DNA of 48,301 nucleotides, taken from positions 1 through 48,301 of the forward strand of contig JAZDFN010000019.1 of NCBI GenBank assembly GCA_043807885.1, given 5' to 3'. Origin of the DNA: a bacterium. GTDB taxonomy: Bacteria; Patescibacteriota; Patescibacteriia; UBA2591; JAZDFN01. Under the pieces are notes generated by a model, which was not told where the DNA came from, did not search any database, and was given only the letters and a program-made list of their open reading frames with translations. A program made the translations under genes and the position numbers. Below are positions 6,601 to 29,209 of this stretch, piece by piece (the first letter of the stretch is position 1; the number at the start of each line of letters is the position of its first letter).

Positions 6601-7995
6601 GCTGATTTTAAGTGGCAGGAGATTGATGCCGGTGGAGCGATTGAGGTAGGGGAGGTAGATACTGACCAACCCGACCAGAAAATAAGATATATTACGGCCA
6701 ATCCCAAAGAAGACGCCCAGGCCTATCTGGATGTTATTGCCAGCGAGGACTTTGCCAACAGCACGGCCAACCAGCTGATTGACGTCCGGGTTTTTGACTG
6801 CGCCAATCCTTGGCCGGCTTTGCCGGATGATATTTATTCTTGGCAGCCGTGGCAGGACGATGTTACCAATTTTCAATTTTATTACTGCCGCGACCGAGGC
6901 GCGATTGGCACAAGTGATGATTTACCGGCCTTGGCTAATCCGCCAGTCATTGTCAATGGTACGGGTGAAATCTTAAAAGAATTTCTTTTTGCTGTTTTAG
7001 ATAGCGACGTGGTTGGTTTCCGAGTTTTGAAAAATGCCGGCAAAAACCAAAAAATTTGTTCCAATGATTGCCAAAAGAGCTGCCTTGACGATACTGAGTG
7101 CAGTGGCGGTTATTGCCTCCGGCAATTTGCTCATTTATCACCTGGACTTTGGTATACTTTCCCTTGCAATGTGCCGGACCCGGGCAGTCCCCAGTCATTG
7201 GAAGTTGACGGCTACAAAGCCGTGCGCGATGGCCGGACAACTTATGCTTCCGCGGCCAATTCCACGCCCGCTGAAATTTTCACCAATATCTATCTGGTTT
7301 CTTACAATGAAGGCGCCAAGGCCGATACCCAAACCATCTACAACCAGATTCTTGGCCATTGGCATTTTAATACCAATTTGGATGATTATCGCGCCTGCCG
7401 GGATGCTGACGGCGAATTGTTGACTTTCGTGCCTTGCGATAATGATTTGGTTTGCCAACCATTGGGTTATTGCGACGCTCGGAAAACCAAAATTACCCGC
7501 GATACCATCCGCTTGGGCGATTTGAATGATCTGGCGCATCTTTTGGAGGCCTATTACAAAAAGAAAGAAGCCAAAGAAGGCCAGGGCGATTATCCGGCCT
7601 TGGCTGGCGGCAGTTATATTAAGGGCTTGTCCACCAGCAAATGGCCGATTTCTTGGGGTTTAACTTTGAAAGGCGAATTAGGCAAGGATTTGCCTCTTGA
7701 CCCGCTTAATCTTTTTGGCGCGGATTGCTCGTTAAAAGACGGTTATGAGGCCTCAACTTGCTGGAATGAAACCAAAAAAGATTTTTATTTGTCGCCTTAT
7801 TCCGATATTTATATTTATAAATATTTTCCCCTGACAACATCAGCGCCGGTGAATTACCATCTCTGTGCGGAATTGGAGTTTAGAGGAGATGGTTTTGGCT
7901 TGCATAATATGGCTGACCAGTGGTTCGGCTTGCCCGATTCCGCGGTTTGGGACTATAAACAGCTTAAATTCGGCCTTAGCCAATGCTATCCTTAA
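682..7995 (+). CDS. Giant (2437 aa) Cys-rich cell-surface protein with N-terminal TrbC/VirB2-like (T4SS_pilin-type) membrane head, Ig-like/IPT-TIG-like domains and Cys-rich repeats
   Basis: Uninterrupted 7.3 kb ORF. The N-terminus has a signal-like segment plus two hydrophobic helices around LYAGFLWLTSAGDEEKINKAKK. IPT/TIG-like segments: ITDVNPMDGAFGNLITIWGQDFG and LLDPSQGRFNDAITLQGINFG. Also CCNGVQDSGETGIDCGGEC, CDxDxxNPGCQxD modules and CGxGxxExGExCDDGNxxxGDGCSxxC repeats. Alternative start ATG 694 (MANKNKK). Confidence 0.85.
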   Translation: MTDLMANKNKKLFFVWLPMILAGFVFSALPAWGADFGLSQIGNAIGLGGDDPRVMIARIINIALGFLGVIALGFVLYAGFLWLTSAGDEEKINKAKKILISAVVGLAIILSAWGITLFVLQKLGAVTGVNINGGGDDNGDGNGPPASALLVKSITPQGEVQICNPVARIKFNKSIDPNTVEGNIIISANSSAGWRTIAGTLKIDGAWVEFRPNSDCPAPYGDKKCWQFNDDPTTEYSINVSNGVKAADGSSLWCGIGYECNGSFTILQGCFVDASSPIVRMTYPFNGQPICSDGTAVKALAKDDTGIGRVDFYVDNNYLDGDAPSEANSESFEAEVWWETGGLAIGSSHKLKAQAFDLDDNNAWSKETSVKIFPAHCCNGVQDSGETGIDCGGECLACTGDDCDSGDDNLDTCVQPDHQQCISQYCRADNCSCLALPLITDVNPMDGAFGNLITIWGQDFGQEAGKVIFLGGDENENCLGLAPKSVNSACTDYWQNDQIIIVVPSCGQTGPIKVVTNVGLYDRTDDWRGPDLGDFEINDIVRPGLCLLDPSQGRFNDAITLQGINFGAQAKQVWFGNPLGKNKIKAQAINNWSNQTITAVVPNLKSGKVPVYAEAFSGQFSNGVNFKVSSTDAGQKTPCDSNPGTSQCDADSDLCPAGEFCDSNTCLCAVGDGNDGNPPAGGEYCDADANNPGCQTDVNLCSTAKPFCDQLSCECQPYQDCSYVWSFTTAERTLCDSDSANPGCQADRNLCAEGEECREDCFCYAEETPPTPPDGEVEYCDSDAQNPGCQADADMCSAEQPFCDQLSCECQPYQSCKYVWTFKTGSPFVIEECVDYNKEGAPSPSPTPWSKVSSNVCINVLVSARFSEPVDEQSVKNNVKVQIDCSGAKSEADCPAEGDGCYWANSQCVSQPLAGYVHVYEWDTDNHYGAFKFYKGVINSSDRSENYLPNTKYQVTLIGGPNGIKTKAGVPLIDDYIWSFQTRDSNQLCKLDKVKVVPFNAKLVIKDALQNYLGETYTKEDSCLLLNSDSYDWDWWSEDASKGKIDDQDSDPKNSKNNVRAVGESPSPIKIYARIESEKKEGYGNLIIEFANFVLLKHWPCGDANGQNVCPNALIGAEFNRQVDRKSFGVNESDGSVSGDSIQIYSCDKGSDCNLNILPFSKGSNWDREQNLRADFFFDAGTGNEEINVSTTPSLLKIGNYYRIIFKDNSQGIKNYLGEELDNPNYDSARGEECEGESAICKNCLNQGLTVACSETTKTNCCGDKIKEPGEDCDDGNNYPGDGCSNVCLNEGSNFKNQCGNGNDQDLGEDPGCDTANGIFSGCNDHCVFKGSFAPAICGDGVVDKAHGEECDQKGQATNGDGCSGKCLFEGIIKNEEGEEDPTKSTKECEPNTQGCDAKGVHLGTLPKVTCGNGKIEIGEDCDDGNTIKGDGCSDFCLNEGSNKFWGSTCGNKVVEGPELDSYSWYFRVKETPGLCQLSSVDVKPEKMTAEVNETINYQADAYGETDVCEPKGQKLRPEDYLWNWWSGDAKKAVVNPSSNNQTAVMTIAETGDTPVKVFASVKDKSGDNAKNDFGELSIVGQGIKGGELCEAKKPNYQYNPDAPAVCPVEVPDCGPVEIYQCLVGDTTGDVCKTYDDCPRCCCEPKKKYKNLTCEPDQDECTGSTRGLYCGCQKDLDCTEVYGDKYGCGFSDPAKCCHPRPWITDCDPTLEFTGVQSSEDTWCKSGNNNFCPNGLIKVYFDQVIKPESLANNNFAVVTRLITKDDGECPKGTIPTGQIDLAFNNSEENGFFSRALGALNDGLNKLFGREAKAEMVEFCQVTGDIYAYQLSAKDETTEEVKYFTEAIFSPDENLEFSRVYYALVAGDDLGTGDEGEGVVSIKGVGMDLKESSNGGWVPAGQKSGNNFFWSFTTKADFCPIDRVNVYINGNEKPAISDLFNCTKDDCPDDFSQSKTGNQHHYYAEALDKDGQEIKADFKWQEIDAGGAIEVGEVDTDQPDQKIRYITANPKEDAQAYLDVIASEDFANSTANQLIDVRVFDCANPWPALPDDIYSWQPWQDDVTNFQFYYCRDRGAIGTSDDLPALANPPVIVNGTGEILKEFLFAVLDSDVVGFRVLKNAGKNQKICSNDCQKSCLDDTECSGGYCLRQFAHLSPGLWYTFPCNVPDPGSPQSLEVDGYKAVRDGRTTYASAANSTPAEIFTNIYLVSYNEGAKADTQTIYNQILGHWHFNTNLDDYRACRDADGELLTFVPCDNDLVCQPLGYCDARKTKITRDTIRLGDLNDLAHLLEAYYKKKEAKEGQGDYPALAGGSYIKGLSTSKWPISWGLTLKGELGKDLPLDPLNLFGADCSLKDGYEASTCWNETKKDFYLSPYSDIYIYKYFPLTTSAPVNYHLCAELEFRGDGFGLHNMADQWFGLPDSAVWDYKQLKFGLSQCYP
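2593..3153 (+). repeat. Four tandem Cys-knot-like coding modules inside the giant ORF (two are close copies)
   Basis: EYCDADANNPGCQTDVNLCSTAKPFCDQLSCECQPYQDCSYVWSFTT (2728-2868) versus EYCDSDAQNPGCQADADMCSAEQPFCDQLSCECQPYQSCKYVWTFKT (3013-3153). More diverged modules PCDSNPGTSQCDADSDLCPAGEFC and LCDSDSANPGCQADRNLCAEGEEC. Confidence 0.8.
4462..5004 (+). repeat. Cys-rich CGxG...DCDDGN..GDGCS..C repeats (myxococcal cysteine-rich repeat / DUF4215-like) inside the giant ORF
   Basis: CCGDKIKEPGEDCDDGNNYPGDGCSNVCLNEG; CGDGVVDKAHGEECDQKGQATNGDGCSGKCLFEG; CGNGKIEIGEDCDDGNTIKGDGCSDFCLNEG; one degenerate copy CGNGNDQDLGEDPGCD... Confidence 0.7.
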
Positions 7996-18995: not shown

Positions 18996-20339
18996 ATGAA
19001 TCAACAGCAAGCTTTGGAAATATTAAAACTGGGCCACAACGCCTATCTCACCGGCCCGGCCGGTAGCGGGAAGACGTATCTATTAAATCAATACATTGCC
19101 TTTTTAAAGAACAAAAATGTCAATGTGGGCGTCACCGCTTCCACTGGCATTGCCGCCACCCACATGAACGGCCGGACCATCCATTCCTGGAGCGGATTGG
19201 GCATCAAAGATCAATTGCGCAAAAAAGACATCGAGGACATGTTAAAAAAATCATATTTGGTCAGCCGGTTAAGAAGCGCCGGGGTTTTGATCATTGACGA
19301 GATTTCCATGTTCCATAATTTCCATTTGGACATGGTTGACGAGATTTGCCGGTCTTTAAGGGGATTGGACCTGCCTTTCGGCGGATTACAGGTAATCCTT
19401 TGCGGGGATTTCTTCCAATTGCCCCCGGTCAACCGGAACGGCTCGGGTTCGGATTTTGTCGTTAATTCGCAAGCGTGGCAAGAGATGGATATTAAAATTT
19501 GTTATTTAGACCAGCAGTTTAGGCAGGCGGACGCCGAGTTTCTGAAATTGTTGACTGAAATCAGGCAAAACCAAATCAGCGAGGAGTGCTTGAACAATCT
19601 GCTGACTAGGATTAAAGAGCCGGTTGACGGTCCGCTCACGCCCACCAAGCTTTACACCCACAATGCGGATGTGGACGCGGTCAACAATCTGGAATTGGCC
19701 ATGATTAAAAATGATCCAATGACTTATGAAATGACTTCCCGGGGCAACAAAAATTTGGTCAGGATTTTAAAAGACAGCTGTCTGGCGCCCCAAACTTTGA
19801 TATTGAAAGAAGGCGCTTTGGTGATGTTTGTGCAGAATAATTTTGAAAAGGGCTATGTCAACGGCACCTTGGGCAAAATTATCGGTTTTGATAACAGTAA
19901 TCTGCCAATTGTGGAAACCAAGTCAGGGGACCGGATAACGGCCAGCCCGGGTATTTGGACCATAGAAGAAGGGGGATCAATGATTGCCAAAATCAGCCAG
20001 ATCCCTTTAAGATTGGCTTGGGCCATTACCGTCCACAAGAGTCAGGGCATGAGTTTGGATTCAGCCGAGATTGATTTGAGCAAAGCATTTGCCCTAGGCA
20101 TGGGCTACGTGGCGCTTTCGCGCGTCAGGACTTTGGAGGGCATAAAACTGTTGGGTATTAATGATATGGCCTTAAAGGTTGATCCGGCCATCGTAGAGCT
20201 GGACCAGGAATTCAGCCGGCAGTCCCAAACGCTCGCCGAGCAGTTGGGCAAAATGAAGGCAAAAGCAAAGAAACAGAAGCAGGAAGAGTTTTTGAAGAGG
20301 GCAAGGTTAAGTATTAGGGGGAGGGGGTTTTTGGGGTAG
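18996..20339 (+). CDS. PIF1/RecD-like SF1B ATP-dependent DNA helicase
   Basis: Walker A GPAGSGKTYLL, Walker B VLIIDEISM, ILCGDFFQLPPV, C-terminal ITVHKSQGMSLD and ALSRV motifs. Start at ATG 18996 (AAAGGA 6 nt upstream). Confidence 0.85.
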   Translation: MNQQQALEILKLGHNAYLTGPAGSGKTYLLNQYIAFLKNKNVNVGVTASTGIAATHMNGRTIHSWSGLGIKDQLRKKDIEDMLKKSYLVSRLRSAGVLIIDEISMFHNFHLDMVDEICRSLRGLDLPFGGLQVILCGDFFQLPPVNRNGSGSDFVVNSQAWQEMDIKICYLDQQFRQADAEFLKLLTEIRQNQISEECLNNLLTRIKEPVDGPLTPTKLYTHNADVDAVNNLELAMIKNDPMTYEMTSRGNKNLVRILKDSCLAPQTLILKEGALVMFVQNNFEKGYVNGTLGKIIGFDNSNLPIVETKSGDRITASPGIWTIEEGGSMIAKISQIPLRLAWAITVHKSQGMSLDSAEIDLSKAFALGMGYVALSRVRTLEGIKLLGINDMALKVDPAIVELDQEFSRQSQTLAEQLGKMKAKAKKQKQEEFLKRARLSIRGRGFLG

Positions 20340-20413
20340 GGTTTGGTTGACTTTTTTAGGGAAAAGTAGGAAGATTGAGGCAGATAAAATATCTTCAAAT
20401 ATATAATTATTAA

Positions 20414-20608
20414 CAAAATGCCTATGAAAATGAACAAGATCATTATGTGGCCGGGCCGGAATTGTTGGCGGAATGCCGAACCCTGGGCGGCTGCCAAAAA
20501 GGCGAAGCTAAAATAACCAAGGGCTATAATCTCCCCGCCAAGTATGTTATCCATACGGTCGGCCCGATTTATGGCCATGAAAACGGCCAGGAAGACAATA
20601 TATATTGA
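20414..20608 (+). pseudogene. Relic of a macro-domain (ADP-ribose/O-acetyl-ADP-ribose hydrolase) gene
   Basis: Frame 2 reads ...[55 protein letters not shown], the conserved central macro-domain block. No in-frame start: a stop lies at 20411-20413 and there is no ATG. N- and C-terminal parts are missing. Confidence 0.7.
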
Positions 20609-20661
20609 CACCAAAAATAGCTGTGATATTATTAAATTAACCGTTTCAGTTTTTCTACAAT

Positions 20662-21324
20662 ATGATAGAAAAATTGAAACGAATAATTCCTATTAATATG
20701 GCCAAAAAATTACAAAGTATAGCTGTGGAAGAAAAACTTAAAACCTTGGGGCTGGCAGTGTTCACGCCTCGGGAATTTCAAGGCGTTTTTGATGTGCCCA
20801 AAAAAACCGCTTCCATGTTTATTCTAAACAACGTGAAAAGCGGCTTGTTTATAAAATTGCGCAACAACTTTTATGCGATTAAGGATAGCAACCCCGACTA
20901 TTCTTTTATCGCCAACAAATTATATCAACCTTCATATATATCGCTGGAAACCGCCTTATCGCATTATAATATTATTCCCGAAGTAGTATATGGCACCACT
21001 TCCATTACCACCAAAGCGCCTCGGGAATTCAAAACGCCGATAGGTAATTTCACCTACCAACACATTAAAACAGAAGCCTTTACCGGCTATCAATTGCAGG
21101 AAATTGATAGATATAAAGCACTGTTTGCGGAGCCGGAAAAAGCCCTGGCTGATTATTTATATTTTGTTGACCTTAAGAAAGTATCGCTTAACGATCGCTT
21201 AAAATTAAAGGGCGTTAATAGGATAAAATTGGTTGAATACGCCAAACTATTTAAACGGCCAAGCATGTTAAAACTGATTAATCAAATCTATGCTGACTCG
21301 CGCCAACCTCGAACAATTTACTAA
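20662..21324 (+). CDS. abiEi: AbiEi-family antitoxin/transcriptional regulator (type IV TA)
   Basis: wHTH-like N-terminus, conserved YISLETALSHYNIIPE block, overlaps the downstream AbiEii gene by 35 nt. Confidence 0.7.
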   Translation: MIEKLKRIIPINMAKKLQSIAVEEKLKTLGLAVFTPREFQGVFDVPKKTASMFILNNVKSGLFIKLRNNFYAIKDSNPDYSFIANKLYQPSYISLETALSHYNIIPEVVYGTTSITTKAPREFKTPIGNFTYQHIKTEAFTGYQLQEIDRYKALFAEPEKALADYLYFVDLKKVSLNDRLKLKGVNRIKLVEYAKLFKRPSMLKLINQIYADSRQPRTIY

Positions 21325-22024
21325 GCAGTCTCAGGCTAAGCTTGAGAATATTGTCAGGGAATACTGCCAACATTTGTTTTTGGCATATCTTTATCAACAG
21401 CCGGGCTCCGAGCATCTGCTGTTCAAAGGCGGTACGGCTTTGCGAATTATTTTCCATAGCTCTCGCTATTCAGAGGATTTGGATTTTACCGGGGTTAATA
21501 TAACCCAAAGGGAAGTGGAAGAAATTTTTACCAATACACTTGCTGCTTTAGAAAAAACCGGCGTTGGCGTTGAGCTGGAGGAAGGCAAGCCGACCACTGG
21601 AGGATATTTAGGCATTGTAGTTTTTCAAACATATGGAAAAAATATCCATATTCAAATTGAAGTTTCTTTAAGAAATGGCAAAAAAGCGAAAGGTATAAGC
21701 AAGCTAATTGAAAATGATTATATCCCCGCCTATACTCTTATTCACTTGGCAGAAGAAGAAATTATCAAAAGTAAGATTCAAGCTCTAATCAACCGCTATA
21801 AACCCAGAGATTTTTATGATTATTTTTTTCTACTCTCTGGCAATTTTCCGATTGTGAAAGAAAAAGAAAATCTAGCCAAAACTCTTAAATTATTACGAAG
21901 CTCAAAAATTGATTTTCGACGCGAACTTAGAGAATTTTTGCCGGCGGGCCACCTTATGCATCTGCGTAATTTCCCAAAGTTATTGGAGGAAAAAATTTTA
22001 AATTTTTTGGGTAAAGCGCGCTAA
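21290..22024 (+). CDS. abiEii: AbiEii/AbiGii-family nucleotidyltransferase toxin (DUF1814)
   Basis: LLFKGGTALRIIFHSSRYSEDLDFT matches the AbiEii NTase core motif (GGTAL...R.S.DLDF). C-terminal RDFYDYFFL block. Confidence 0.8.
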   Translation: MLTRANLEQFTKQSQAKLENIVREYCQHLFLAYLYQQPGSEHLLFKGGTALRIIFHSSRYSEDLDFTGVNITQREVEEIFTNTLAALEKTGVGVELEEGKPTTGGYLGIVVFQTYGKNIHIQIEVSLRNGKKAKGISKLIENDYIPAYTLIHLAEEEIIKSKIQALINRYKPRDFYDYFFLLSGNFPIVKEKENLAKTLKLLRSSKIDFRRELREFLPAGHLMHLRNFPKLLEEKILNFLGKAR

Positions 22025-22120
22025 AGAAATTTCAAACGGACAAGCAATCAGCCAATGGAGATTTTGGAAGTTAGGTATTAATTTTATAATTAAATAAATT
22101 ATTCATAACCATAAAATACC

Positions 22121-23059
22121 ATGAAGCCAATAATCAAAGAGGCAAAAAGGGGATGGCTGAACCTTACGATTTGGAGCCGGAATGTAGATAAAAAGATTTT
22201 AAAAATCTCTAAGCATTTCGGCATAACCTTCATTGTGATATTTATTATTACCGCCTCAGCGATTACCATTGGGAATGAAATAATGGATGTAGTGCTCGGC
22301 GACGAGTATGATTCTGAAGGTTCTTACGCCGACGAAAGTTATGGCGAAGAATCAAATTGCAATGTTTTGGGGATAAATATCCATGGCGATATAGCCACTT
22401 ATATTTCCAAAGAATATTATGATAAGGATGTAGATGGTTATTTGGTGGACCAGACCGCTTCGGAAGATGTTGTCTCTTACATCCAATCGGCGCAAACAGA
22501 TGAAGACATTAAAGCTATTTTTTTAGAGATTGATTCTACCGGTGGTTCTCCTACGGCCGGCGAAGAGATAGCTAATACCTTAAAACTAACAACCAAGCCC
22601 ACGGTGGTTATGATTAGGAACGCCGGGCTTTCCAGCGCCTATTATGCCGCTACTGGCGCGGATGTTATTTTCGCCTCGCAACATTCTGACGTGGGGAGCA
22701 TTGGCGTCACTTGGTCATATTTGGATTATGCTGAAAAAAATAAGAAAGAAGGGTCGACCTATAATCAAGTAAGTAGCGGGGTATTCAAAGATATGGGCGA
22801 TCCTGACAAGCCGTTAACGGCCGCCGAGAAAGAATTAGCCATGCGGGATATTAATATTATGAAAGAGAATTTTATCAAAGCCGTGGCGGAAAACAGAAAG
22901 TTGGATATTGAAAAGGTGAGGCGAATGGCCGACGGTTCAACCATGCTTGGCCAGATGGCTTTGGAAAACGGCTTGGTTGATAAAATCGGCGGAATCAATG
23001 AAGTTCAGGATTATCTCACAGAGACCATTGGCGAAGAGCCGGAGTTTTGCTGGCAGTAA
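22121..23059 (+). CDS. sppA: Signal peptide peptidase SppA (S49, 36K type)
   Basis: N-terminal TM, IFLEIDSTGGSPTAGEEI, GLSSAYYAATGAD (catalytic Ser region), GSIGV, C-terminal GLVDKIGG. Confidence 0.8.
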   Translation: MKPIIKEAKRGWLNLTIWSRNVDKKILKISKHFGITFIVIFIITASAITIGNEIMDVVLGDEYDSEGSYADESYGEESNCNVLGINIHGDIATYISKEYYDKDVDGYLVDQTASEDVVSYIQSAQTDEDIKAIFLEIDSTGGSPTAGEEIANTLKLTTKPTVVMIRNAGLSSAYYAATGADVIFASQHSDVGSIGVTWSYLDYAEKNKKEGSTYNQVSSGVFKDMGDPDKPLTAAEKELAMRDINIMKENFIKAVAENRKLDIEKVRRMADGSTMLGQMALENGLVDKIGGINEVQDYLTETIGEEPEFCWQ

Positions 23060-23085
23060 ACATAAATAAAGTCATTATAACTTTT

Positions 23086-23469
23086 ATGCCCTACCTCGGC
23101 GTTATCATTGAAGAAAGCTTAAAAGACAAAAACATCCTAAAAGATGTCAAAGTTTTAAGTACTAAAATAGAGGAAGCCGGGGCTGAAGAGGGGACGCCTA
23201 ACCTTGCCCATTGGACCATGCATACTGTTGAAATCCCTGAAGGTGAAGAAGAGGCGATTGCTCAAAAACTCAGCCAGTCGTTATATGCCAATAATAACGG
23301 CCATTGGTATGCCGACTACAAAAACGCCACTCATCACTATATCATCTTTCCCGGCAAAATATTCTACATTGACCGGGCCAAAAAGGAAGAATATGACGAA
23401 GCGACCAAATACGGCATCTCTGTAGGCGTTCCGGCGCATCAATTGGGTTTTTCTCTGGAAGTAATTTAA
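23086..23469 (+). CDS. Hypothetical protein (127 aa)
   Basis: ATG 23086 (MPYLGVIIEESLKD...). The track start 23047 is a TTG overlapping sppA. Contains YKNATHHYIIFPGK, whose coding sequence is repeated at 24626-24663. Confidence 0.6.
   Translation: MPYLGVIIEESLKDKNILKDVKVLSTKIEEAGAEEGTPNLAHWTMHTVEIPEGEEEAIAQKLSQSLYANNNGHWYADYKNATHHYIIFPGKIFYIDRAKKEEYDEATKYGISVGVPAHQLGFSLEVI
23323..23360 (+). repeat. Left copy of a 38-bp direct repeat bracketing the MerR-GHKL/STAS cassette
   Basis: AACGCCACTCATCACTATATCATCTTTCCCGGCAAAAT versus AACGCCACCCACCACTATATCATCTTCCCCGGCAAAAT at 24626-24663. 35 of 38 identical; all 3 differences are synonymous third-codon positions. Confidence 0.85.
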
Positions 23470-23500
23470 GAAATCAAAAAATCGGCTGTAAGTGAGAGGA

Positions 23501-23569
23501 GTAGAAAATGAGTAGATTCGTGTATTTTTGGGTAGATTTGACATATACTTGTGTAGATTTGGATAGTAT
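23501..23569 (+). promoter_or_regulatory. Phased GTAGATT(TG) direct repeats overlapping a long-spacer promoter upstream of the MerR-family gene
   Basis: GTAGAAA 23501, GTAGATT 23512, GTAGATTTG 23532 and GTAGATTTG 23553 (20-21 bp phasing). TTGACA 23538-23543, 20-nt spacer, TAGTAT 23564-23569. Confidence 0.45.
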
Positions 23570-23583
23570 GATACCATTAATAT

Positions 23584-24303
23584 ATGGAAGAAAAATTGCT
23601 AACAATCAGCCAAGCGGCTGAATATTTGGGTATTTCTATAAATACGCTTCGCCGTTGGGATGAAAGCGGTAAGTTAACCGCGATCAAAAAAGATGGCGGC
23701 ACGCACAGATATTACCAAGAAAAGGATTTAGAGATCTTTGCCAGTGATTTAATGAAGTTTGCTTCCGAATGGATTGAGGATGGCGTGGAGTTCCCAGGCA
23801 CATTCTATTGCCCGACCAGCTCGATTTTTAACGCCAGATTGACAAAGATGGAGTATGCTTTGATGCAAAAGCCGGGGTTTGAAAAACTATACTCCCTGAT
23901 CGTTTTAATTGCCGGGGAAATCGGCGATAATTCATTCGCTCATAATTTAGGGAAATGGCCGGATACGGCAGGAATTTTCTTTGGCTACGATCTGGCCAAA
24001 GGCATTATCGTGCTGGCTGATAGAGGACTGGGTATTTTAGAAACGTTACGCCAAATTCGTCCGGAACTTCCGAACCATGTTACGGCCGTAACGGTTGCTT
24101 TTACTGAATTTATTTCCGGCCGGGCGCCGGAAAAACGCGGGAATGGCCTTAAGTTGGTCCGTGAAGTGGTTATTGACCAGCCGATTGATTTATTTTATAC
24201 CAGTGGCGATGCCGAAGTGCGCATGAAGGGCCAGAATAAGATATTTCAGGTTACGCGCGGCCAGCGTATTGTGCGAGGATGCTTGGCAAAAATAGAATTT
24301 TAA
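23584..24303 (+). CDS. Fusion protein: N-terminal MerR-type HTH plus C-terminal RsbW/SpoIIAB-like GHKL ATPase/kinase domain
   Basis: LTISQAAEYLGISINTLRRWDESGKL (MerR HTH). GHKL N-box EIGDNSFAH, G1 box DRGLG, G2 box GNGLKL. Confidence 0.7.
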   Translation: MEEKLLTISQAAEYLGISINTLRRWDESGKLTAIKKDGGTHRYYQEKDLEIFASDLMKFASEWIEDGVEFPGTFYCPTSSIFNARLTKMEYALMQKPGFEKLYSLIVLIAGEIGDNSFAHNLGKWPDTAGIFFGYDLAKGIIVLADRGLGILETLRQIRPELPNHVTAVTVAFTEFISGRAPEKRGNGLKLVREVVIDQPIDLFYTSGDAEVRMKGQNKIFQVTRGQRIVRGCLAKIEF

Positions 24304-24324
24304 TAAATTTTAATAGGTAAATAT

Positions 24325-24618
24325 ATGAAATTACAGCTGGAAAAATTTGGTAAAACATTAATATCGCGGGAATTGGGCAGTGAAGCCCTTAAGGCATTTC
24401 AGCCGACTCTGCGAGAGCTTTCAAAAGACGAAGAACTGGAAATAGATTTTTCCGGAGTATTGACATTGTCGCCTTCTTGGGCTGATGAATTTTTAAGCCC
24501 GCTGTTAAATCAATTGGGCGATCGCTTGGTGCTTTTGCCAAGTGATAATCTTTCAGTAGGCGCAACAATTAGGATTCTTCAGGAGGCCAATAAACAATCA
24601 TTTGGGATTAGGGCCTGA
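24325..24618 (+). CDS. STAS-like small protein (DUF4325-like), probable partner of the upstream GHKL protein
   Basis: 97 aa: LISRELGSEALKAFQPTLRELSKDEELEIDFSGVLTLSPSWADEFLSPLL, as recalled for DUF4325/STAS-like proteins. Confidence 0.6.
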   Translation: MKLQLEKFGKTLISRELGSEALKAFQPTLRELSKDEELEIDFSGVLTLSPSWADEFLSPLLNQLGDRLVLLPSDNLSVGATIRILQEANKQSFGIRA

Positions 24619-24669
24619 TTTCTACAACGCCACCCACCACTATATCATCTTCCCCGGCAAAATGATTTA
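24614..24669 (+). pseudogene. Short relic of a paralogue of the 23086 gene (carries the right copy of the 38-bp repeat)
   Basis: Reads PDFYNATHHYIIFPGKMI*, compared with ADYKNATHHYIIFPGKIFY in the intact gene. Begins at the STAS gene stop. Confidence 0.7.
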
Positions 24670-24680
24670 AGAAGTTCTAA

Positions 24681-24705
24681 AGATCGCCTCCCTGGCGATT
24701 TTTTG
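24681..24705 (+). terminator. Intrinsic terminator
   Basis: ATCGCC-TCCCT-GGCGAT stem-loop followed by TTTTTT. The same ATCGCC/GGCGAT stem is used at 39469-39486. Confidence 0.65.
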
Positions 24706-24712
24706 ATATAAT
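24704..24712 (+). promoter_or_regulatory. Extended -10 element TGATATAAT upstream of the 24783 gene
   Basis: TG 24704-24705, TATAAT 24707-24712, about 70 nt upstream of ATG 24783. Confidence 0.4.
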
Positions 24713-24782
24713 GAAAACAATAAAACAAAAACCCTGGTCCCGATAAATTGAAATGGTGGCGTTGGCAAGATAAAAAATAATT

Positions 24783-25490
24783 ATGAATGCGATTATCAAA
24801 AAAATCCGAAAGGAACTAAAGCAAAACAGCGATCCACACACTAAAGCCACGTGGCCGAGGTTTTTTAAGGAAAAAGTGAAAATCCATGGCGTCAAAACCC
24901 CTCTGGTCATTAAGGCCGGCCGGGCGTTCAATCGGGAAATTATGGCCATGGACAAAAAAGCGGTCTTCGCCCTATGTGAAGAGCTGTGGCAGTCGGGCTA
25001 TATGGAAGAGTCGTTTATCGCTTGCCATTGGTCGTACCTTATCCGTAAAAAATATCAACCGGCGGATTTCAAGGTATTTGAAAAGTGGGTGGCTGATTAT
25101 GTCACCAACTGGGCGTCATGCGATAATTTTTGCAACCATACTGTCGGCGCGTTTGTCGAAAAGTATCCCAATTATTTGAAAAATTTCAAACAATGGGCCA
25201 AGTCCAAAAATCGCTGGATGCGCCGGGCTTCGGCCGTAACCCTGATAGTCCCGGCCCGGCAGGGGAAATTTTTAAAAGATATTTTCAAAATCGCCGATAT
25301 TCTGCTCTTGGACCGCGATGACTTGGTGCAAAAAGGCTATGGCTGGATGCTTAAAGTCGCCAGCGAGGCGCATCAAAAAGAAGTCTTTGGCTATGTCATG
25401 AAAAACAAAGACCAAATGCCCCGGACAGCGCTCCGTTACGCGATAGAGAAAATGCCCCCCGGTTTGAGGGCAAAAGCCATGAAAAAATAA
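24783..25490 (+). CDS. DNA alkylation repair protein (AlkD/AlkC-like HEAT-repeat family)
   Basis: N-terminal IKKIRKELKQNSDPHTKATWPRFFKEKVKIHGVKTP, ...NWASCDNFC..., SKNRWMRRASAVTL and GYGWMLK, as recalled for the DNA_alkylation family. Confidence 0.7.
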   Translation: MNAIIKKIRKELKQNSDPHTKATWPRFFKEKVKIHGVKTPLVIKAGRAFNREIMAMDKKAVFALCEELWQSGYMEESFIACHWSYLIRKKYQPADFKVFEKWVADYVTNWASCDNFCNHTVGAFVEKYPNYLKNFKQWAKSKNRWMRRASAVTLIVPARQGKFLKDIFKIADILLLDRDDLVQKGYGWMLKVASEAHQKEVFGYVMKNKDQMPRTALRYAIEKMPPGLRAKAMKK

Positions 25491-25570
25491 AATAATAAAT
25501 AAGAAACCTGGGTGGCCTTTGCCACAATTTTACAATTGACGATTACTTATTTGAACAGATAATATGGTTT

Positions 25571-25632
25571 TGTTAACCGCGTTTGACAAACAGGTTAACA
25601 TTTGTTAACCTTATAATATCTTAAGGTTAACA
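25571..25632. promoter_or_regulatory. Four copies of the 8-mer TGTTAACC/GGTTAACA (each containing palindromic GTTAAC) upstream of an HTH gene: probable operator array
   Basis: TGTTAACC 25571-25578, GGTTAACA 25593-25600, TGTTAACC 25603-25610, GGTTAACA 25625-25632. They flank TTGACA (25583-25588) and TATAAT (25612-25617). Confidence 0.55.
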
Positions 25633-25640
25633 ACGATTTT

Positions 25641-25919
25641 ATGCAAAATAACCATCAAAAAACCCATATTTCCGTGGCTGAACTGGCAAAAATGCTGGGC
25701 ATCAGCCGGATTGCCGTCTTTAAACGAATTAAAAAGGGACAAATTCCCGCTGAAAGAATCGGGCGGTCTTATGTTATTTCCATAAATGACGTTAATGAAA
25801 TCACCCAGGGAATCGGCCCGAAAATATTAACCAAAGAAAAAAAAGAGGTTATAGAAAAAGCGGTTAAAAAGACGGTCAAAGAATACGGGGAAACTTTAAA
25901 GCTTTTAGGCAAAGAATAA
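25641..25919 (+). CDS. Excisionase/MerR-superfamily HTH DNA-binding protein
   Basis: ISVAELAKMLGISRIAVFKRIKKGQIPAERIGRSYVI resembles the excisionase-family HTH; Lys/Glu-rich tail. Confidence 0.6.
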   Translation: MQNNHQKTHISVAELAKMLGISRIAVFKRIKKGQIPAERIGRSYVISINDVNEITQGIGPKILTKEKKEVIEKAVKKTVKEYGETLKLLGKE

Positions 25920-25922
25920 AAT

Positions 25923-25985
25923 ATGCGCATTGAGAGAATTACTATCTTGGATGTTGAATATGTGGCCCAATTGAAACTTTTTTAA
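25923..25985 (+). CDS. 20-codon ORF, possibly the stump of a toxin-like partner gene
   Basis: MRIERITILDVEYVAQLKLF* starts 3 nt after the HTH gene stop. The resemblance to Doc/Fic N-termini is weak. Confidence 0.15.
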   Translation: MRIERITILDVEYVAQLKLF

Positions 25986-26024
25986 ATACCTATATTTTGG
26001 ATTTATAACTAATAATTAACCATT

Positions 26025-26504
26025 ATGAACACCATCAAACCCACCGGCTGTTGTGAGCCGTTTGACCCCAAGCCCTGGGAAGACAAAGAAATCACTTGGC
26101 AGGACAAAATGTTCGTTAAAGACCACGTCACCAGTTTTTTACATATCCCCCTTAACTTCGGCCAGAAAGTGGTCAAAAACATGAAACTGATAGAATCAGC
26201 CGGCGCTGAAACGCCTTATCAATTAATGCTGACTGATGAAAAATCTCTCTGGGGTTCTGATATTTATATTGACGTGGGTAAAGCCGTGCCAAACGCGCAG
26301 ATGGCCACGCTTTCCGGCACCTTCTTGACCAAAGTTTTTGAAGGGCCTTACAAAAACGCGAGTCAGTGGGCGAAAGAGATGTCCGAGTACGTGAAGGGCA
26401 AAGGCAAAGAATTGAAAAAAATGTATTTTTCCTACACTACCTGCCCGAAGTGCGCCAAGGCCTACGGGAAAAATTACGTGGTGCTTTTCGCGCAGATAAA
26501 ATAA
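26025..26504 (+). CDS. Conserved hypothetical Cys-containing protein
   Basis: 159-aa ORF: N-terminal CCEPFDPKPWEDKEITW, C-terminal CPKCAKAYGKNY. No family named with confidence. Confidence 0.6.
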   Translation: MNTIKPTGCCEPFDPKPWEDKEITWQDKMFVKDHVTSFLHIPLNFGQKVVKNMKLIESAGAETPYQLMLTDEKSLWGSDIYIDVGKAVPNAQMATLSGTFLTKVFEGPYKNASQWAKEMSEYVKGKGKELKKMYFSYTTCPKCAKAYGKNYVVLFAQIK

Positions 26505-26520
26505 TTTCCGCATTAATATC

Positions 26521-26573
26521 GTAGGGACAGAACAGTGTTCTGTCCTTGGGACAGGACGATGTCCTGTCCCTAC
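26521..26573 (+). repeat. Twin covarying hairpins with an alternative outer helix in the 3' region of the 26025 gene
   Basis: GGACAGAAC-AGT-GTTCTGTCC (26525-26545) and GGGACAGGAC-GAT-GTCCTGTCCC (26548-26570). GTAGGGACAG (26521-26530) can alternatively pair with CTGTCCCTAC (26564-26573). Confidence 0.8.
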
Positions 26574-26580
26574 AACGGCG

Positions 26581-26607
26581 AAAAACAAGATTTAATTCTT
26601 GTTTTTT
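26581..26607 (+). terminator. A/T-rich intrinsic terminator
   Basis: AACAAGA-TTTAAT-TCTTGTT stem-loop flanked by an A-run and a T-run. Confidence 0.5.
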
Positions 26608-26613
26608 GTTATT

Positions 26614-26655
26614 GACCCGCCAAGATTTTGCTTCGCAAAAACTTAGGCGGGCAAG
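26614..26655. repeat. GC-clamped long hairpin GACCCGCC...GGCGGGCAA; same ends as the 39427-39446 micro-hairpin but with a nested hairpin in the loop
   Basis: CCCGCC-AAG-a-TTTTGC-TTC-GCAAAA-a-CTT-a-GGCGGG. Compare GACCCGCC-TTG-GGCGGGCAA at 39427-39446. Confidence 0.7.
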
Positions 26656-26724
26656 ACGAGGATTTAAAGGTTAGTTTAAAATAATAAACCTCGCAATATT
26701 GTCAAAGAGGGGTTACCTGTATGT

Positions 26725-26752
26725 TTGACAAAATCCTCTTTTCTGCTATTCT
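26725..26752 (+). promoter_or_regulatory. Candidate promoter of the first surface-protein paralogue
   Basis: TTGACA 26725-26730, 16-nt spacer ending TGc, TATTCT 26747-26752. Strong SD AAGGAGGAG precedes ATG 26828. Confidence 0.45.
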
Positions 26753-26827
26753 TGCCTTAAGGAGGGCAATCAAGCCGTTCCTTGAAAATTTAACCATTAT
26801 CTCAAAACCTTTATTAAGGAGGAGAAA

Positions 26828-29209
26828 ATGTCACGCAAGAATTTGTTTATAGCGACCATAATTATGGCGTTATGCTGGTTAAGTTCCATTGGTCAAGCCG
26901 AACAAATTGATTTTGCTCTGCGTCTTGAGCCAAGCCAAAACACTTTCAAGCCAAATGATGCTTTGCGGGTTTTCCTGGATTTGAATATTAACCAGGCGCC
27001 TGTTGTGTCGGACCTTTACTTTATTATAGCGTCGCCAAATGGATACTATTCCGCTTTTGATTGGCAAAAAGGCATAAGGCCCTTGTTACTGGCCTATCCT
27101 TTTTCCCAGAAATTGTCCATCCAAGACATACTGTTGTTAGAAATTATTTTGCCCAGCGATTTCCCGCCGATTGCCAATGCGGGCGATTATATTTTCGCTA
27201 TTGGCGCTTTTAAGCCCAACACCGGCAATTTGATTTCCAATATCGGCCAAGCAAGTTTTCATTATGAACAAGAAACCGAAGAACCATGGATTGATTTTAC
27301 TGACATTCCGGATTATGGCTCCCCCGGAGTATTGAAAGGTAAAGTCGGCGGCGTTAATTCGGCTGATTACGGAATATTGGTCTATATTGAAGTTGAGACC
27401 GTTTGGTGGACTAAACCGTATTTTAACGCACCGTTAACTACGATTAATACCGATGACACTTGGAGCTGTAATATCACGACTGGCGGCAATGATGCCTATG
27501 CTACTAAAATAGCTGCTTATTTAGTGCCTGTTGGCATTGACCCATTCCAATATCAATGCGGTCCCTGTTACCAGTTGCCGAAAATTCCCGAAGCAGTCGC
27601 TTCTAAGCAGGCGGACCGCAGTCCGCCGCAAAGAACAGTTGATTTTTCCGGTTATCAATGGAATATCAAACGGCGCGATTTTCCGGCCGGTCCCGGTCCC
27701 AATTATTTCTCGGATAAAAAAGAGGATATTTGGGTTGATGGAGAAGGCCTGCATTTGACCATTAAGGAACATGATGGCAAATGGAATTGCACTGAGGCGA
27801 TTAACACCGATTCCTTGGGCTATGGCACCTATGTTATCCAGACCCGCGGCCGGATAGATAATATGGGTTATATTCCGGTATTCGGCATCTTTACCTGGTG
27901 CACCGAAGCCAAGGAATACAACTACAAAGAAATTGACATTGAAGCGGCTCGCTGGGGCCATCTTGATGACACCAACTTTCAGTATGTGGTTCAGCCCTGT
28001 TCCCAATGTCCTGGTTGCGGCGATAATTGTGCCCGCTTTAATGTTGAATTGAGCGATGAAGATAGCAACCTGACCTACTACATAGCTTGGAAGTCGGGCC
28101 AAGCGGAATTTGCCACTTATTACGGTGAACATGGTAAAGGTACTCCGCCTGCCGAGGATTTAATTTATCATTGGGTCCATGCCAGTTCAGATGTCCCGCC
28201 AGCCGGTGGTGAAAACTTCCGATTTAATTTCTGGCTTTTTGGCGGCAATGCTCCGGATAAAGGAGAGCAGGAAGTAGTTGTTACTTATTTTGATTGGCGC
28301 GAAGATTATGTATTCCCCACGCCAACCCCAACTATGACTAAAACGATTACGCCAACCCATACTCCGATTTATCCATCTATGACCAAAACTGCCACCGCCA
28401 CTGCTACTCCGACTATGACAGCCACTAAAACCGCTACCGCCACCTTAACCAAGACGGCAACACCGACTCCGACGCCAACTCCGGGCTTGGAAATTACTAC
28501 TTATCCACCATATGGTTCGCCGGGTTATTTACAAGGCAAAGCGTTAGGCGTTAATCCCCAAGATTATAAGATAACGGTTTACATTTTTGTTCCGACTTCT
28601 TATCCGGTTGGCTGGTGGGTTAAACCGACTTTGGCTAATCCATTCACTTTGATTAATCCTGCCGGCGATTGGAGCTGTAATATTGCTACTGGCGGCGTTG
28701 ATACGGAAGCGACTATTCTGCGAGCTTATTTGATTCCTAATGGCGTTAATCCGCCTCTGGCAAACGGTTGGAATGAATTACCGGAAATTCCCGAAGCGGT
28801 CGCTATGGCAGAAGTATTTAGAACGCCAAACCCGACAGCTACGCCGAGTAATACGCCAACCCCGCCCGACCCTTGGATTATTTTCAGTTATGTGCCATCT
28901 AAAGGCAGTTATGATAATCTGCAAGGAACCGTAGGCGGTGTTAGTCCAATGAGCGATTATAAAGTGATGGTCTATATTTACTATTACGGTTGGTGGACCA
29001 AACCTTATTTTGACACGCCATTGACCTATATTGCCAGTAACGGCAGTTGGACTTGCGACATCACTACCGGTGGCTATGATCAGGATGCCACCAAAATCGC
29101 CGCTTATTTAGTACCGGCCAGCATTGACGCCAACAAATATCAATGTGGCGGTAGTTCAAATTTGCCGGACGTTCCCGAGTCAGTCGCCTTTATTGAAGTT
29201 GATAGGTAA
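26828..29209 (+). CDS. Secreted multidomain protein: shared N-terminal domain, novel about 110-aa repeat (x3), GH16-like beta-glucanase/lectin domain, Thr/Pro linkers
   Basis: Signal peptide MSRKNLFIATIIMALCWLSSIGQA. GH16-type catalytic motif KEIDIEAARWG (E-I-D-I-E). TPTPT linkers. Repeat units at about 27284-27602, 28484-28806 and 28868-29206. Confidence 0.85.
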   Translation: MSRKNLFIATIIMALCWLSSIGQAEQIDFALRLEPSQNTFKPNDALRVFLDLNINQAPVVSDLYFIIASPNGYYSAFDWQKGIRPLLLAYPFSQKLSIQDILLLEIILPSDFPPIANAGDYIFAIGAFKPNTGNLISNIGQASFHYEQETEEPWIDFTDIPDYGSPGVLKGKVGGVNSADYGILVYIEVETVWWTKPYFNAPLTTINTDDTWSCNITTGGNDAYATKIAAYLVPVGIDPFQYQCGPCYQLPKIPEAVASKQADRSPPQRTVDFSGYQWNIKRRDFPAGPGPNYFSDKKEDIWVDGEGLHLTIKEHDGKWNCTEAINTDSLGYGTYVIQTRGRIDNMGYIPVFGIFTWCTEAKEYNYKEIDIEAARWGHLDDTNFQYVVQPCSQCPGCGDNCARFNVELSDEDSNLTYYIAWKSGQAEFATYYGEHGKGTPPAEDLIYHWVHASSDVPPAGGENFRFNFWLFGGNAPDKGEQEVVVTYFDWREDYVFPTPTPTMTKTITPTHTPIYPSMTKTATATATPTMTATKTATATLTKTATPTPTPTPGLEITTYPPYGSPGYLQGKALGVNPQDYKITVYIFVPTSYPVGWWVKPTLANPFTLINPAGDWSCNIATGGVDTEATILRAYLIPNGVNPPLANGWNELPEIPEAVAMAEVFRTPNPTATPSNTPTPPDPWIIFSYVPSKGSYDNLQGTVGGVSPMSDYKVMVYIYYYGWWTKPYFDTPLTYIASNGSWTCDITTGGYDQDATKIAAYLVPASIDANKYQCGGSSNLPDVPESVAFIEVDR
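28316..28483 (+). repeat. Thr/Pro/Ala-rich low-complexity linker coding region
   Basis: PTPTPTMTKTITPTHTPIYPSMTKTATATATPTMTATKTATATLTKTATPTPTPTP. Confidence 0.8.

Follow-up and report, generated by a model that had tools for sequence, protein, structure and literature searches.

What is the role of a two-gene unit in which a DNA-binding domain is fused to a GHKL domain and is followed at once by a small STAS protein? This question is raised by a locus in a 48,301-nucleotide stretch of DNA from a bacterium of the Patescibacteriota (contig JAZDFN010000019.1 of assembly GCA_043807885.1, positions 1 to 48,301 of the forward strand), the whole of which is referred to below as the window. The locus, called the cassette here, holds two genes (gene 1 and gene 2) that an earlier, sequence-only reading had singled out; both open reading frames (ORFs) and the motifs quoted in it were found where it had placed them. 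We propose that the cassette is probably a self-contained, autoregulated kinase-substrate switch of the CapK/CapS-VapK/VapS superfamily, reduced to its minimum and carried on a mobile unit of 1.1-1.2 kb. The elements of the two genes are as follows.

23584-24303, + strand: gene 1, 239 amino acids, ATG start
23596-23739, + strand: BldC/MerR-type helix-turn-helix (HTH) of gene 1, residues 5-52
Residues 55-99 of gene 1, + strand: two-helix linker (45 residues)
23881-24300, + strand: GHKL kinase-like domain of gene 1, residues about 100-239
23917-23943, + strand: N box EIGDNSFAH, residues 112-120
24019-24033, + strand: G1 motif DRGLG, residues 146-150
Residues 181-185 of gene 1, + strand: flexible ATP lid, disordered in the AlphaFold2 (AF2) model
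24139-24156, + strand: G2 motif GNGLKL, residues 186-191
24325-24618, + strand: gene 2, 97 amino acids, ATG start, 21 nt after gene 1 and in the same reading frame
24469-24480, + strand: S49-P50-S51-W52 of the gene 2 STAS domain (DUF4325), candidate phospho-acceptor site, invariant, at the N-terminus of helix alpha2

Residues 5-52 of gene 1 matched the Pfam families HTH_17, MerR and MerR_1 (E 1e-10 to 2e-9). The remainder of the protein (residues 56-239) matched no family in Pfam, NCBIfam or PADLOC and no entry of the PDB, where phmmer and hmmsearch with E up to 10 returned HTH proteins only. Among 49 relatives (29-52 % identity), the residues of all three GHKL motifs are invariant, i.e. E112, N116, H120 and N121 in the N box, D146, G148 and G150 in G1, and R185, G186, G188 and L189 in G2; four of these relatives matched HATPase_c_2 or HATPase_c weakly (E about 1e-3). 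The AF2 model of gene 1, built from 132 sequences of 45-91 % identity (predicted local distance difference test score, pLDDT, 86.9; predicted template-modelling score, pTM, 0.77), starts its GHKL part with the N-box helix, continues with two strands and G1, then with two helices, the disordered lid, the G2 helix and two long strands, and its C-terminal part retrieved the GHKL ATPase domains of TRAP1/Hsp90, GyrB, ParE and the African swine fever virus topoisomerase in Foldseek (probability 0.9-1.0, E about 1e-3). The domain is small (~140 aa) and has no transducer domain in the model. Only residues 55-99, two helices, lie between it and the HTH, and the hhalign matches to the kinases described below start at residue 106-107.

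The HTH was matched by Foldseek to BldC in its DNA complexes, with 38-40 % identity, a root-mean-square deviation of 1.7-1.9 Å and a template-modelling (TM) score of 0.70-0.74 relative to BldC. Gene 1 resembles the MerR regulators sensu stricto in its HTH, but its operator consists of three direct repeats and not of a palindrome in a long-spacer promoter, and its nearest structures are the BldC complexes. Gene 1 is made up of a BldC-like HTH, a short linker of helices and a GHKL domain in which the ATP-binding motifs are intact. The earlier assignment of a MerR-type HTH fused to a GHKL fold therefore stands, through Pfam for the HTH and through the AF2/Foldseek comparison and the invariant motifs for the GHKL part, which has no direct Pfam match. 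A weak NCBIfam match to the MerR-type HTH of an IS607-like serine recombinase was set aside, the protein having no resolvase domain and a GHKL fold. We also noted two cysteines, C76 (23809-23811) and C233 (24280-24282), in the pairs Y75-C76 and G232-C233, which are invariant or nearly so in the close family and are not found at the aligned VapK position; they could form a redox or metal site.

Gene 2 scored 25.4 bits against Pfam DUF4325 (PF14213; gathering cut-off 23), and many of its homologues carry a precomputed PF14213 assignment, in agreement with the 97-residue STAS-like, DUF4325-like partner described earlier. Its AF2 model (pLDDT 88.3) superposes on RsbS, SpoIIAA, RsbV, TM1442 and SLC26 STAS domains with TM scores of 0.6-0.7. 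Helix 2 of the model starts at residue 50, which puts S49-P50-S51-W52 at the canonical acceptor position, and both S49 and S51 are invariant among relatives. In the model a single STAS fold fills all 97 residues, with no C-terminal tail, and no HTH was found in a Pfam scan. Gene 2 is therefore nothing more than a STAS domain, whose helix 2 has invariant serines at its N-terminus.

The closest known systems, the damage-sensing switches CapK/CapS and VapK/VapS, were characterized in 2026, and the view that a module of this kind has no characterized function is thus out of date. CapK is an HTH-STAS-GHKL kinase of 368 aa whose activator is single-stranded DNA (ssDNA; Chambers et al., EMBO J 2026, PMC13373217). 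Its internal STAS domain forms the ssDNA-sensing groove, and it phosphorylates Ser54 of CapS, a repressor with STAS and winged-HTH (wHTH) domains, leading to de-repression of a downstream immune operon; N218 of CapK is required for this phosphorylation (PMC13373217). VapK (STAS-GHKL) phosphorylates VapS, which results in release of the PIN toxin VapC, and VapKSC, a toxin-antitoxin system, gives protection against a phage (PMC13373217).

We compared family profiles of the cassette with the CapK, CapS, VapK and VapS sequences, taken from the source files of PMC13373217, by hhalign. The kinase profile matched VapK with a probability of 84.8 % (E 6.6e-6, 123 columns) and CapK with 75.5 % (E 2.4e-5, 106 columns), and E112/N116/H120 align with E214/N218/H222 of CapK. 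The STAS profile matched CapS (66 %, E 5.5e-5), placing S51 on the phosphoserine S54, and VapS (E 3e-4). Against the PDB it gave weak matches, among the three best of which were 9z7o (VapS) and 9z71, a wHTH regulator that is taken to be CapS from the structure files of PMC13373217. The kinase profile did not match SpoIIAB significantly (0.5 % vs. 75-85 % for CapK and VapK; E 0.12), although the motifs are collinear, using a SpoIIAB sequence verified against PDB 1TIL. The SpoIIAB/RsbW-like label given to gene 1 in the earlier reading was rejected on this basis. Judging from these alignments, the cassette probably belongs to the CapK/VapK-CapS/VapS superfamily, and not specifically to SpoIIAB/RsbW. 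The idea that W63 of gene 1 is the counterpart of the ssDNA-stacking residues W68 of CapK and F54 of VapK was dropped, because by eye this stretch looks like the linker of VapK (…LTQNW134I…) rather than like the internal STAS domain.

Homologues of gene 1 fall into more than 4,300 clusters at 90 % identity, and the named clusters are almost all from metagenome-assembled genomes (MAGs) labelled Patescibacteria/Candidate Phyla Radiation (CPR). For comparison we used 80 loci, one genome per species, which include Yanofsky-, Uhr-, Taylor-, Nomura-, Falkow-, Doudna-, Giovannoni-, Komeili-, Peregrini-, Berkel- and Kerfeldbacteria and are 63-91 % identical to the window in protein and 64-82 % in nucleotide sequence. 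The STAS gene directly follows gene 1 in all 79 loci that could be assessed, and is also found 3' of gene 1 in two subfamilies of ~50 % identity (L112, L114), bearing out the expectation that the two genes co-occur. Synonymous sites are saturated in many pairs (median proportion of synonymous differences, pS, 0.74); in pairs with a synonymous divergence (dS) below 1, the nonsynonymous to synonymous ratio (dN/dS) was 0.075 in gene 1 and 0.107 in gene 2, showing that both are under strong purifying selection, and we take both to be real genes. The wider family of the C-terminal domain has 291 representatives at 50 % clustering; some members lack an HTH (~195 aa) and others carry an HTH of the XRE or MarR type. 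A phage-borne element was also considered and rejected: a single relative, of 49 % identity, was found among 2.9 million viral contigs of IMG/VR.

The region upstream of gene 1 provides evidence for autoregulation. Its elements are the following.

23507-23583, + strand: promoter/operator region of the cassette, conserved as part of the homology block and containing the repeats
23509-23518, 23529-23538 and 23550-23559, + strand: three direct repeats TGnGTAGATT, spaced by 20 and 21 nt
23567-23572, + strand: -10-like TATGAT, conserved, with the ATG 11 nt further on

In most of the 80 other loci, the nucleotide homology sets in at about 23500-23530, ~55-85 nt 5' of the ATG; in about ten it sets in at or near the ATG. 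The operator repeats are conserved in the 77 upstream regions that were aligned. In the window the tandem pattern occurs at the cassette promoter only (0 expected by chance), and in the 973 kb formed by the window plus the loci, all 159 tandem pairs lie at the cassettes' own promoters. The operators fall into two classes that track residue 20 of the HTH, where the recognition helix begins: of 43 loci with N20, 39 have G-TAG, and all 30 loci with D20 have CA-TAG. Subfamilies of ~50 % identity pair Q20 with TA-TAG (L030, L112), T20 with AG-TAGG (L082) and D with CA-TAG, and the operators of distant subfamilies keep the same 21-nt spacing. This co-variation is strong comparative evidence that the gene 1 HTH binds the TGnGTAGATT repeats, and hence that the operon is likely to be autoregulated. 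BldC binds direct repeats as head-to-tail multimers, and autoregulation through direct repeats fits a BldC-like fold. No second operator for neighbouring genes was found in the 973 kb, nor within ~6 kb of the cassette in any locus. As a separate observation, the motif AACATCCTTAyAnACTTGAGAATGT recurs 5' of several genes in L059 (5636-5660, 7138-7162 and 7474-7498), and L071 has a single occurrence of a part of it (AACATCCTTACAAAC), at about 6020; this motif may be a promoter element.

The cassette is a discrete block of homology that holds the two genes only. In most loci the nucleotide homology ends within ~30 nt of the STAS stop, and the flanking sequence is unrelated from locus to locus, the immediate neighbours ranging from restriction-modification (RM) genes, AbiE, Fic, DpnI and IS200 through to RpoC, EF-G, ArgS, MurE and L21. 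In the window, the surroundings of the cassette are as follows.

23047-23469, + strand: orf140, host gene 5' of the cassette, likely ATG at 23086, 127 aa, no Pfam family
23314-23360, + strand: left copy of a 47-nt direct repeat, within the intact orf140, codons for DYKNATHHYIIFPGK
24617-24663, + strand: right copy of the 47-nt repeat, 85 % identical, an out-of-context orf140 relic (DFYNATHHYIIFPGKMI, then stop) that begins at the STAS stop codon
24683-24705, + strand: terminator-like hairpin and T-run, ATCGCC-tccct-GGCGAT-TTTTT, read from the sequence (a consensus scan did not list this hairpin)
24783-25490, + strand: alkD, AlkD-type DNA alkylation repair gene 3' of the cassette (PF08713, E 5e-62)

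The cassette splits the pair formed by orf140 (23086-23469) and alkD. The repeat that had been said to bracket the module was recovered, and proved to be an internal piece of orf140 with a copy directly after the STAS stop. Of 29 metagenomic orf140 loci, none contains the cassette, and in three (L092, L088 and L095, on distant, unrelated contigs) alkD directly follows orf140 with no cassette between them. The closest relative of the cassette, in L081, is 90 % identical in nucleotide sequence over 23502-24596 and has different flanks: a 5' relic of the window-type orf140 abuts its left end, and a full copy of 65 % identity lies downstream.

We scored direct repeats within 400 nt of the cassette, with 595 equally sized pseudo-units from the same loci as controls. 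In 14 of 64 loci (22 %) the cassette stands between locus-specific repeats of 19-84 nt with 88-100 % identity, vs. 3 of 595 controls (0.5 %; p about 1e-12), and repeats of at least 36 nt bracket 9 of 64 cassettes vs. none of the 595 controls. In ten loci the repeat period is 1130-1303 nt, i.e. the cassette and little more. Where their identity can be read, the repeats are ends of neighbouring genes (5' or 3') or intergenic sequence, for instance the start of recJ in L072 and gene ends in L001, L013 and L021. The cassette contains no recombinase, and no inverted terminal repeats were noticed on reading its ends, a systematic search for them not having been made. A site-specific att site or transposon ends were rejected as explanations since the flanking repeats vary by locus. 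The flanking repeat is probably a relic of target duplication and forms part of a general signature of insertion, and the cassette is an insertion with the signature of 'insertion with long target duplication'. RM units carry the same signature (Furuta 2010, PMC2853133).

Cassettes of 85-88 % nucleotide identity were found in MAGs labelled as different CPR lineages (Niyogi- vs. Doudnabacteria and Uhr- vs. Parcubacteria), and the cassette's GC content follows that of its host (r = 0.69). These sequence comparisons point to movement between CPR lineages followed by long residence. We also observed that L074 (2021-8079) has two identical whole cassettes on the same strand, 5 kb apart, around AbiEi/AbiEii-like genes (4721-5402), which looks like a composite or amplified arrangement.

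How might such a unit work? In the switch that we propose, the HTH-kinase would bind its repeats head-to-tail and repress its own operon, while its GHKL domain would bind ATP and the STAS partner, phosphorylating S51 (or S49). The STAS protein, once bound or phosphorylated, would then change how the kinase-repressor oligomerizes or binds DNA, and a stress signal would in this way lead to de-repression of the operon. The activating signal need not be ssDNA, since gene 1 lacks the internal STAS domain with which CapK and VapK form their ssDNA groove. Candidate outputs could be read-through into downstream genes, phosphorylation of a host target, or a toxin-antitoxin-like addiction. The module had earlier been described as a partner-switching circuit wired straight to DNA. 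A kinase/STAS switch coupled to DNA is a reasonable description of what we see; partner switching in the strict sense is not supported, because it needs an alternative partner such as a sigma factor, for which there is no evidence.

By analogy, the mobility pattern shared with RM units favours a selfish or defence-type role. A bolder version of this idea is that the cassette is a new kind of selfish mobile unit of CPR bacteria that moves from lineage to lineage without a recombinase, through insertion with long target duplication, and persists as a stand-alone addiction or anti-phage switch whose effector would be the kinase itself, phosphorylating a conserved host target, and not a neighbouring gene. 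We consider this version rather doubtful; if true, it would account as well for proteins that are 80-90 % conserved from one CPR lineage to another.

Several points weigh against the switch that we propose. The top Foldseek matches of the whole gene 1 chain are ATPases of the Hsp90 and GyrB types, with no kinases, and that gene 1 is a kinase rather than an ATPase is suggested only by its relationship to CapK/VapK and by the STAS protein encoded next to it. The profile matches to CapK, VapK, CapS and VapS are moderate (probability 39-85 %). The association of residue 20 with the operator class (Fisher 1.7e-16) was computed ignoring phylogenetic non-independence. No target of gene 1 other than its own promoter was found. 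As for mobility, 78 % of loci have no flanking repeat, and a search of metagenomes for the exact empty site of L001 gave 0 matches.

Other explanations must be weighed against these data. One is a toxin-antitoxin or abortive-infection addiction module, in which the HTH-kinase or its phosphorylated target would be toxic and the STAS protein a neutralizing pseudo-substrate, as in VapS/VapC; such a module would persist and spread since its loss is costly or phage infection is aborted. This overlaps with the switch that we propose, differing mainly in output, and we give it some credence, as a minority possibility. The compact two-gene operon and its tight autoregulation are consistent with it, as are the insertion signature shared with RM units, which are classical addiction modules, the position of many cassettes near RM, AbiE, Fic and RhuM genes (raw neighbour counts), the two copies flanking AbiE genes in L074, and the relationship to VapKSC, a toxin-antitoxin system with phage protection. 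However, there is no recognizable toxin domain, no PADLOC model matches either the GHKL part or the STAS part, toxin-antitoxin pairs do not usually reach an amino-acid conservation of 80-90 %, many of the insertions have housekeeping genes on both sides, and one relative in 2.9 million viral contigs provides no evidence of an arms race with phages. A second possibility is that the cassette controls an adjacent pathway in the manner of CapK/CapS, including by read-through into accidental downstream genes. The homology to CapK/CapS would fit, as would the downstream neighbours, 78 % of which are co-oriented, with a median gap of 142 nt, and of which the one in the window encodes a DNA-repair glycosylase; RM-type genes are the commonest annotated neighbours, as reported for capKS (PMC13373217). 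Upstream neighbours are equally co-oriented (56 of 72), however, so that this is probably a general strand bias of these genomes. The downstream genes are moreover highly heterogeneous (ArgS, MurE, L21, a tRNA methyltransferase), no locus has a second operator within ~6 kb, a terminator-like hairpin separates the cassette from alkD in the window, and the insertion evidence shows the neighbours to be accidental. We therefore regard pathway control as unlikely.

The remaining alternatives concern the biochemistry of the GHKL domain. It could act as an ATPase or DNA clamp, like MORC, MutL or Hsp90, with the STAS protein regulating its nucleotide state and not serving as a substrate. The best structural matches (Hsp90/TRAP1, GyrB, ParE) and the predicted binding of gene 1 to DNA through its HTH would be in keeping with this, but the domain is minimal (~140 aa) and lacks a transducer domain, in sequence it is related to the CapK/VapK kinases, and the STAS protein encoded next to it keeps invariant serines where the canonical acceptor lies; we find this a little harder still to accept than pathway control. 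Classical anti-sigma partner switching, in which the GHKL protein would sequester a sigma factor or other host protein and the STAS protein would release it, is the alternative with least to recommend it and in our view very improbable. In its favour, the N box (ExxxNxxxH), G1 and a PE..RGxGL lid/G2 segment come in the same order as in SpoIIAB, SpoIIAA and RsbV can be superposed on the STAS model, and four of the 49 relatives touch HATPase_c_2. Set against this are the non-significant hhalign comparison with SpoIIAB, the absence of any sigma-factor family among those listed for the immediate neighbours, and the fact that gene 1 carries its own DNA-binding domain, with a co-evolving operator.

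The cassette lies in a part of the window (20000-27000) that looks like an accessory or variable region, with a GC content of 0.38-0.43 vs. 0.46-0.54 in most of the first 20 kb. It contains AbiE, an S49 peptidase, orf140, the cassette, alkD, an orphan HTH gene and a PF20603 hydrolase. The AbiE system mentioned in the sequence-only reading is indeed present.

20662-22024, + strand: AbiEi/AbiEii pair, a neighbour in the low-GC accessory stretch, outside the cassette

The conserved motifs of orf140 are MPYxGVIIEESL… and WYADYKN.T.HYIIF. Its adjacency to alkD in three unrelated metagenomic contigs suggests that orf140 and the gene for the AlkD-type glycosylase are functionally linked, and a local alignment found a similar hairpin/T-run sequence 3' of the orf140 homologue in L081. 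Downstream, the HTH_17 gene of 92 aa at 25641-25919 (within 25568-25969) has a counterpart in L081, 88 % identical in nucleotide sequence and followed by a Fic gene; about 340 nt holding most of that Fic gene are missing from the window, whose HTH_17 gene looks like the orphan of an HTH-Fic pair. GTTAAC repeats are abundant upstream of it. Directly 3' of the hydrolase gene, a 25-nt inverted repeat (26521-26573, 84 % complementary, 3-nt loop) is probably a terminator. A 793-aa ORF at 26828-29209 has a signal-like N-terminus, Pro/Thr-rich linkers and three copies of a ~100-aa module (…YGSPG.L.GKV.GV…WW.KPY…), and a giant ORF of 2437 aa occupies 682-7995. The + strand carries nearly every gene of the contig.

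The principle of kinase/STAS switching was already published in 2026 (PMC13373217). What is new here is the minimal architecture, in which DNA binding is the task of a domain of the kinase, together with its CPR-wide spread, its extreme conservation, a readable operator code and the evidence for a mobile cassette. CPR/Patescibacteria make up a large, almost uncultured share of bacterial diversity and have tiny genomes. That a two-gene cassette occurs in thousands of these genomes, is better conserved than most of their proteins and is nevertheless mobile makes it likely to be important to these bacteria, possibly in stress sensing, phage sensing or genome conflict. The code relating residue 20 of the HTH (N, D, Q or T) to the bases 5' of TAG is directly testable, and the cassette offers a non-RM example of the poorly understood insertion with long target duplication.

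A comparison with known systems brings these features together. RM units inserting with long target duplication were reportedly described by Nobusato in 2000. Like such units, the cassette is recombinase-free and lies between direct repeats that are specific to the locus, vary in length over tens of bp and are often the ends of neighbouring genes; unlike them, its cargo is a kinase/STAS pair, its hosts are CPR bacteria and its exact empty site was not recovered. With BldC and the Xis-type MerR-like proteins it shares the HTH (38-40 % identical to BldC) and an operator of direct repeats. BldC is, however, a stand-alone protein of ~70 aa, whereas the HTH here is the N-terminal module of a GHKL protein, and gene 1 lacks the coiled-coil or effector domain of MerR. 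SpoIIAB/SpoIIAA and RsbW/RsbV resemble the cassette in pairing a compact GHKL protein (ExxxNxxxH, DxGxG, GxGL) with a single-domain STAS protein (STAS TM 0.6-0.7). The cassette differs from them in its kinase profile (E 0.12), in the fusion of an HTH to the kinase, in the lack of a sigma factor, no such family being among those listed for the immediate neighbours or in the neighbour clusters examined, and in that gene 2 belongs to DUF4325 and not to the STAS/STAS_2 families.

VapK gave the best match to the kinase profile (84.8 %) and its N box is nearly identical (EIYANSFEH vs. EIGDNSFAH), while VapS, like gene 2, is small, with an S-P motif at almost the same place (S48-P49 vs. S49-P50 of gene 2). 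VapK, however, has an N-terminal STAS domain and no HTH, and the C-terminal tail of VapS blocks the PIN toxin VapC, whereas the cassette has neither a tail nor a third gene: no PIN domain was among the 25 Pfam families listed most often for the immediate neighbours on either the upstream or the downstream side, and no conserved third gene in the neighbour clusters. With CapK/CapS the cassette shares the gene order, in which a DUF4325-type STAS gene comes immediately after that of a GHKL kinase, the N-terminal HTH of the kinase, the aligned N-box E/N/H and STAS serine (S51/S54), probable autoregulation from its own promoter and frequent RM neighbours. In contrast to CapK, its kinase has a linker of 45 residues, two helices, in place of the internal STAS domain. 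CapS is a wHTH repressor acting on palindromes; the STAS protein of the cassette has no DNA-binding domain, and it is the MerR/BldC-type HTH of the kinase that matches direct repeats. The cassette also differs from CapK/CapS in being mobile, with no fixed neighbour, and in occurring almost only in MAGs labelled Patescibacteria/CPR. Because its kinase has no internal STAS domain, its substrate no wHTH or tail, and the unit no fixed effector, the cassette is a distinct minimal architecture and a member of neither CapK/CapS nor VapK/VapS/VapC. Kinase-STAS signalling of the CapK/VapK type would thus gain a third, minimal wiring, in which the kinase itself bears the DNA-binding domain.

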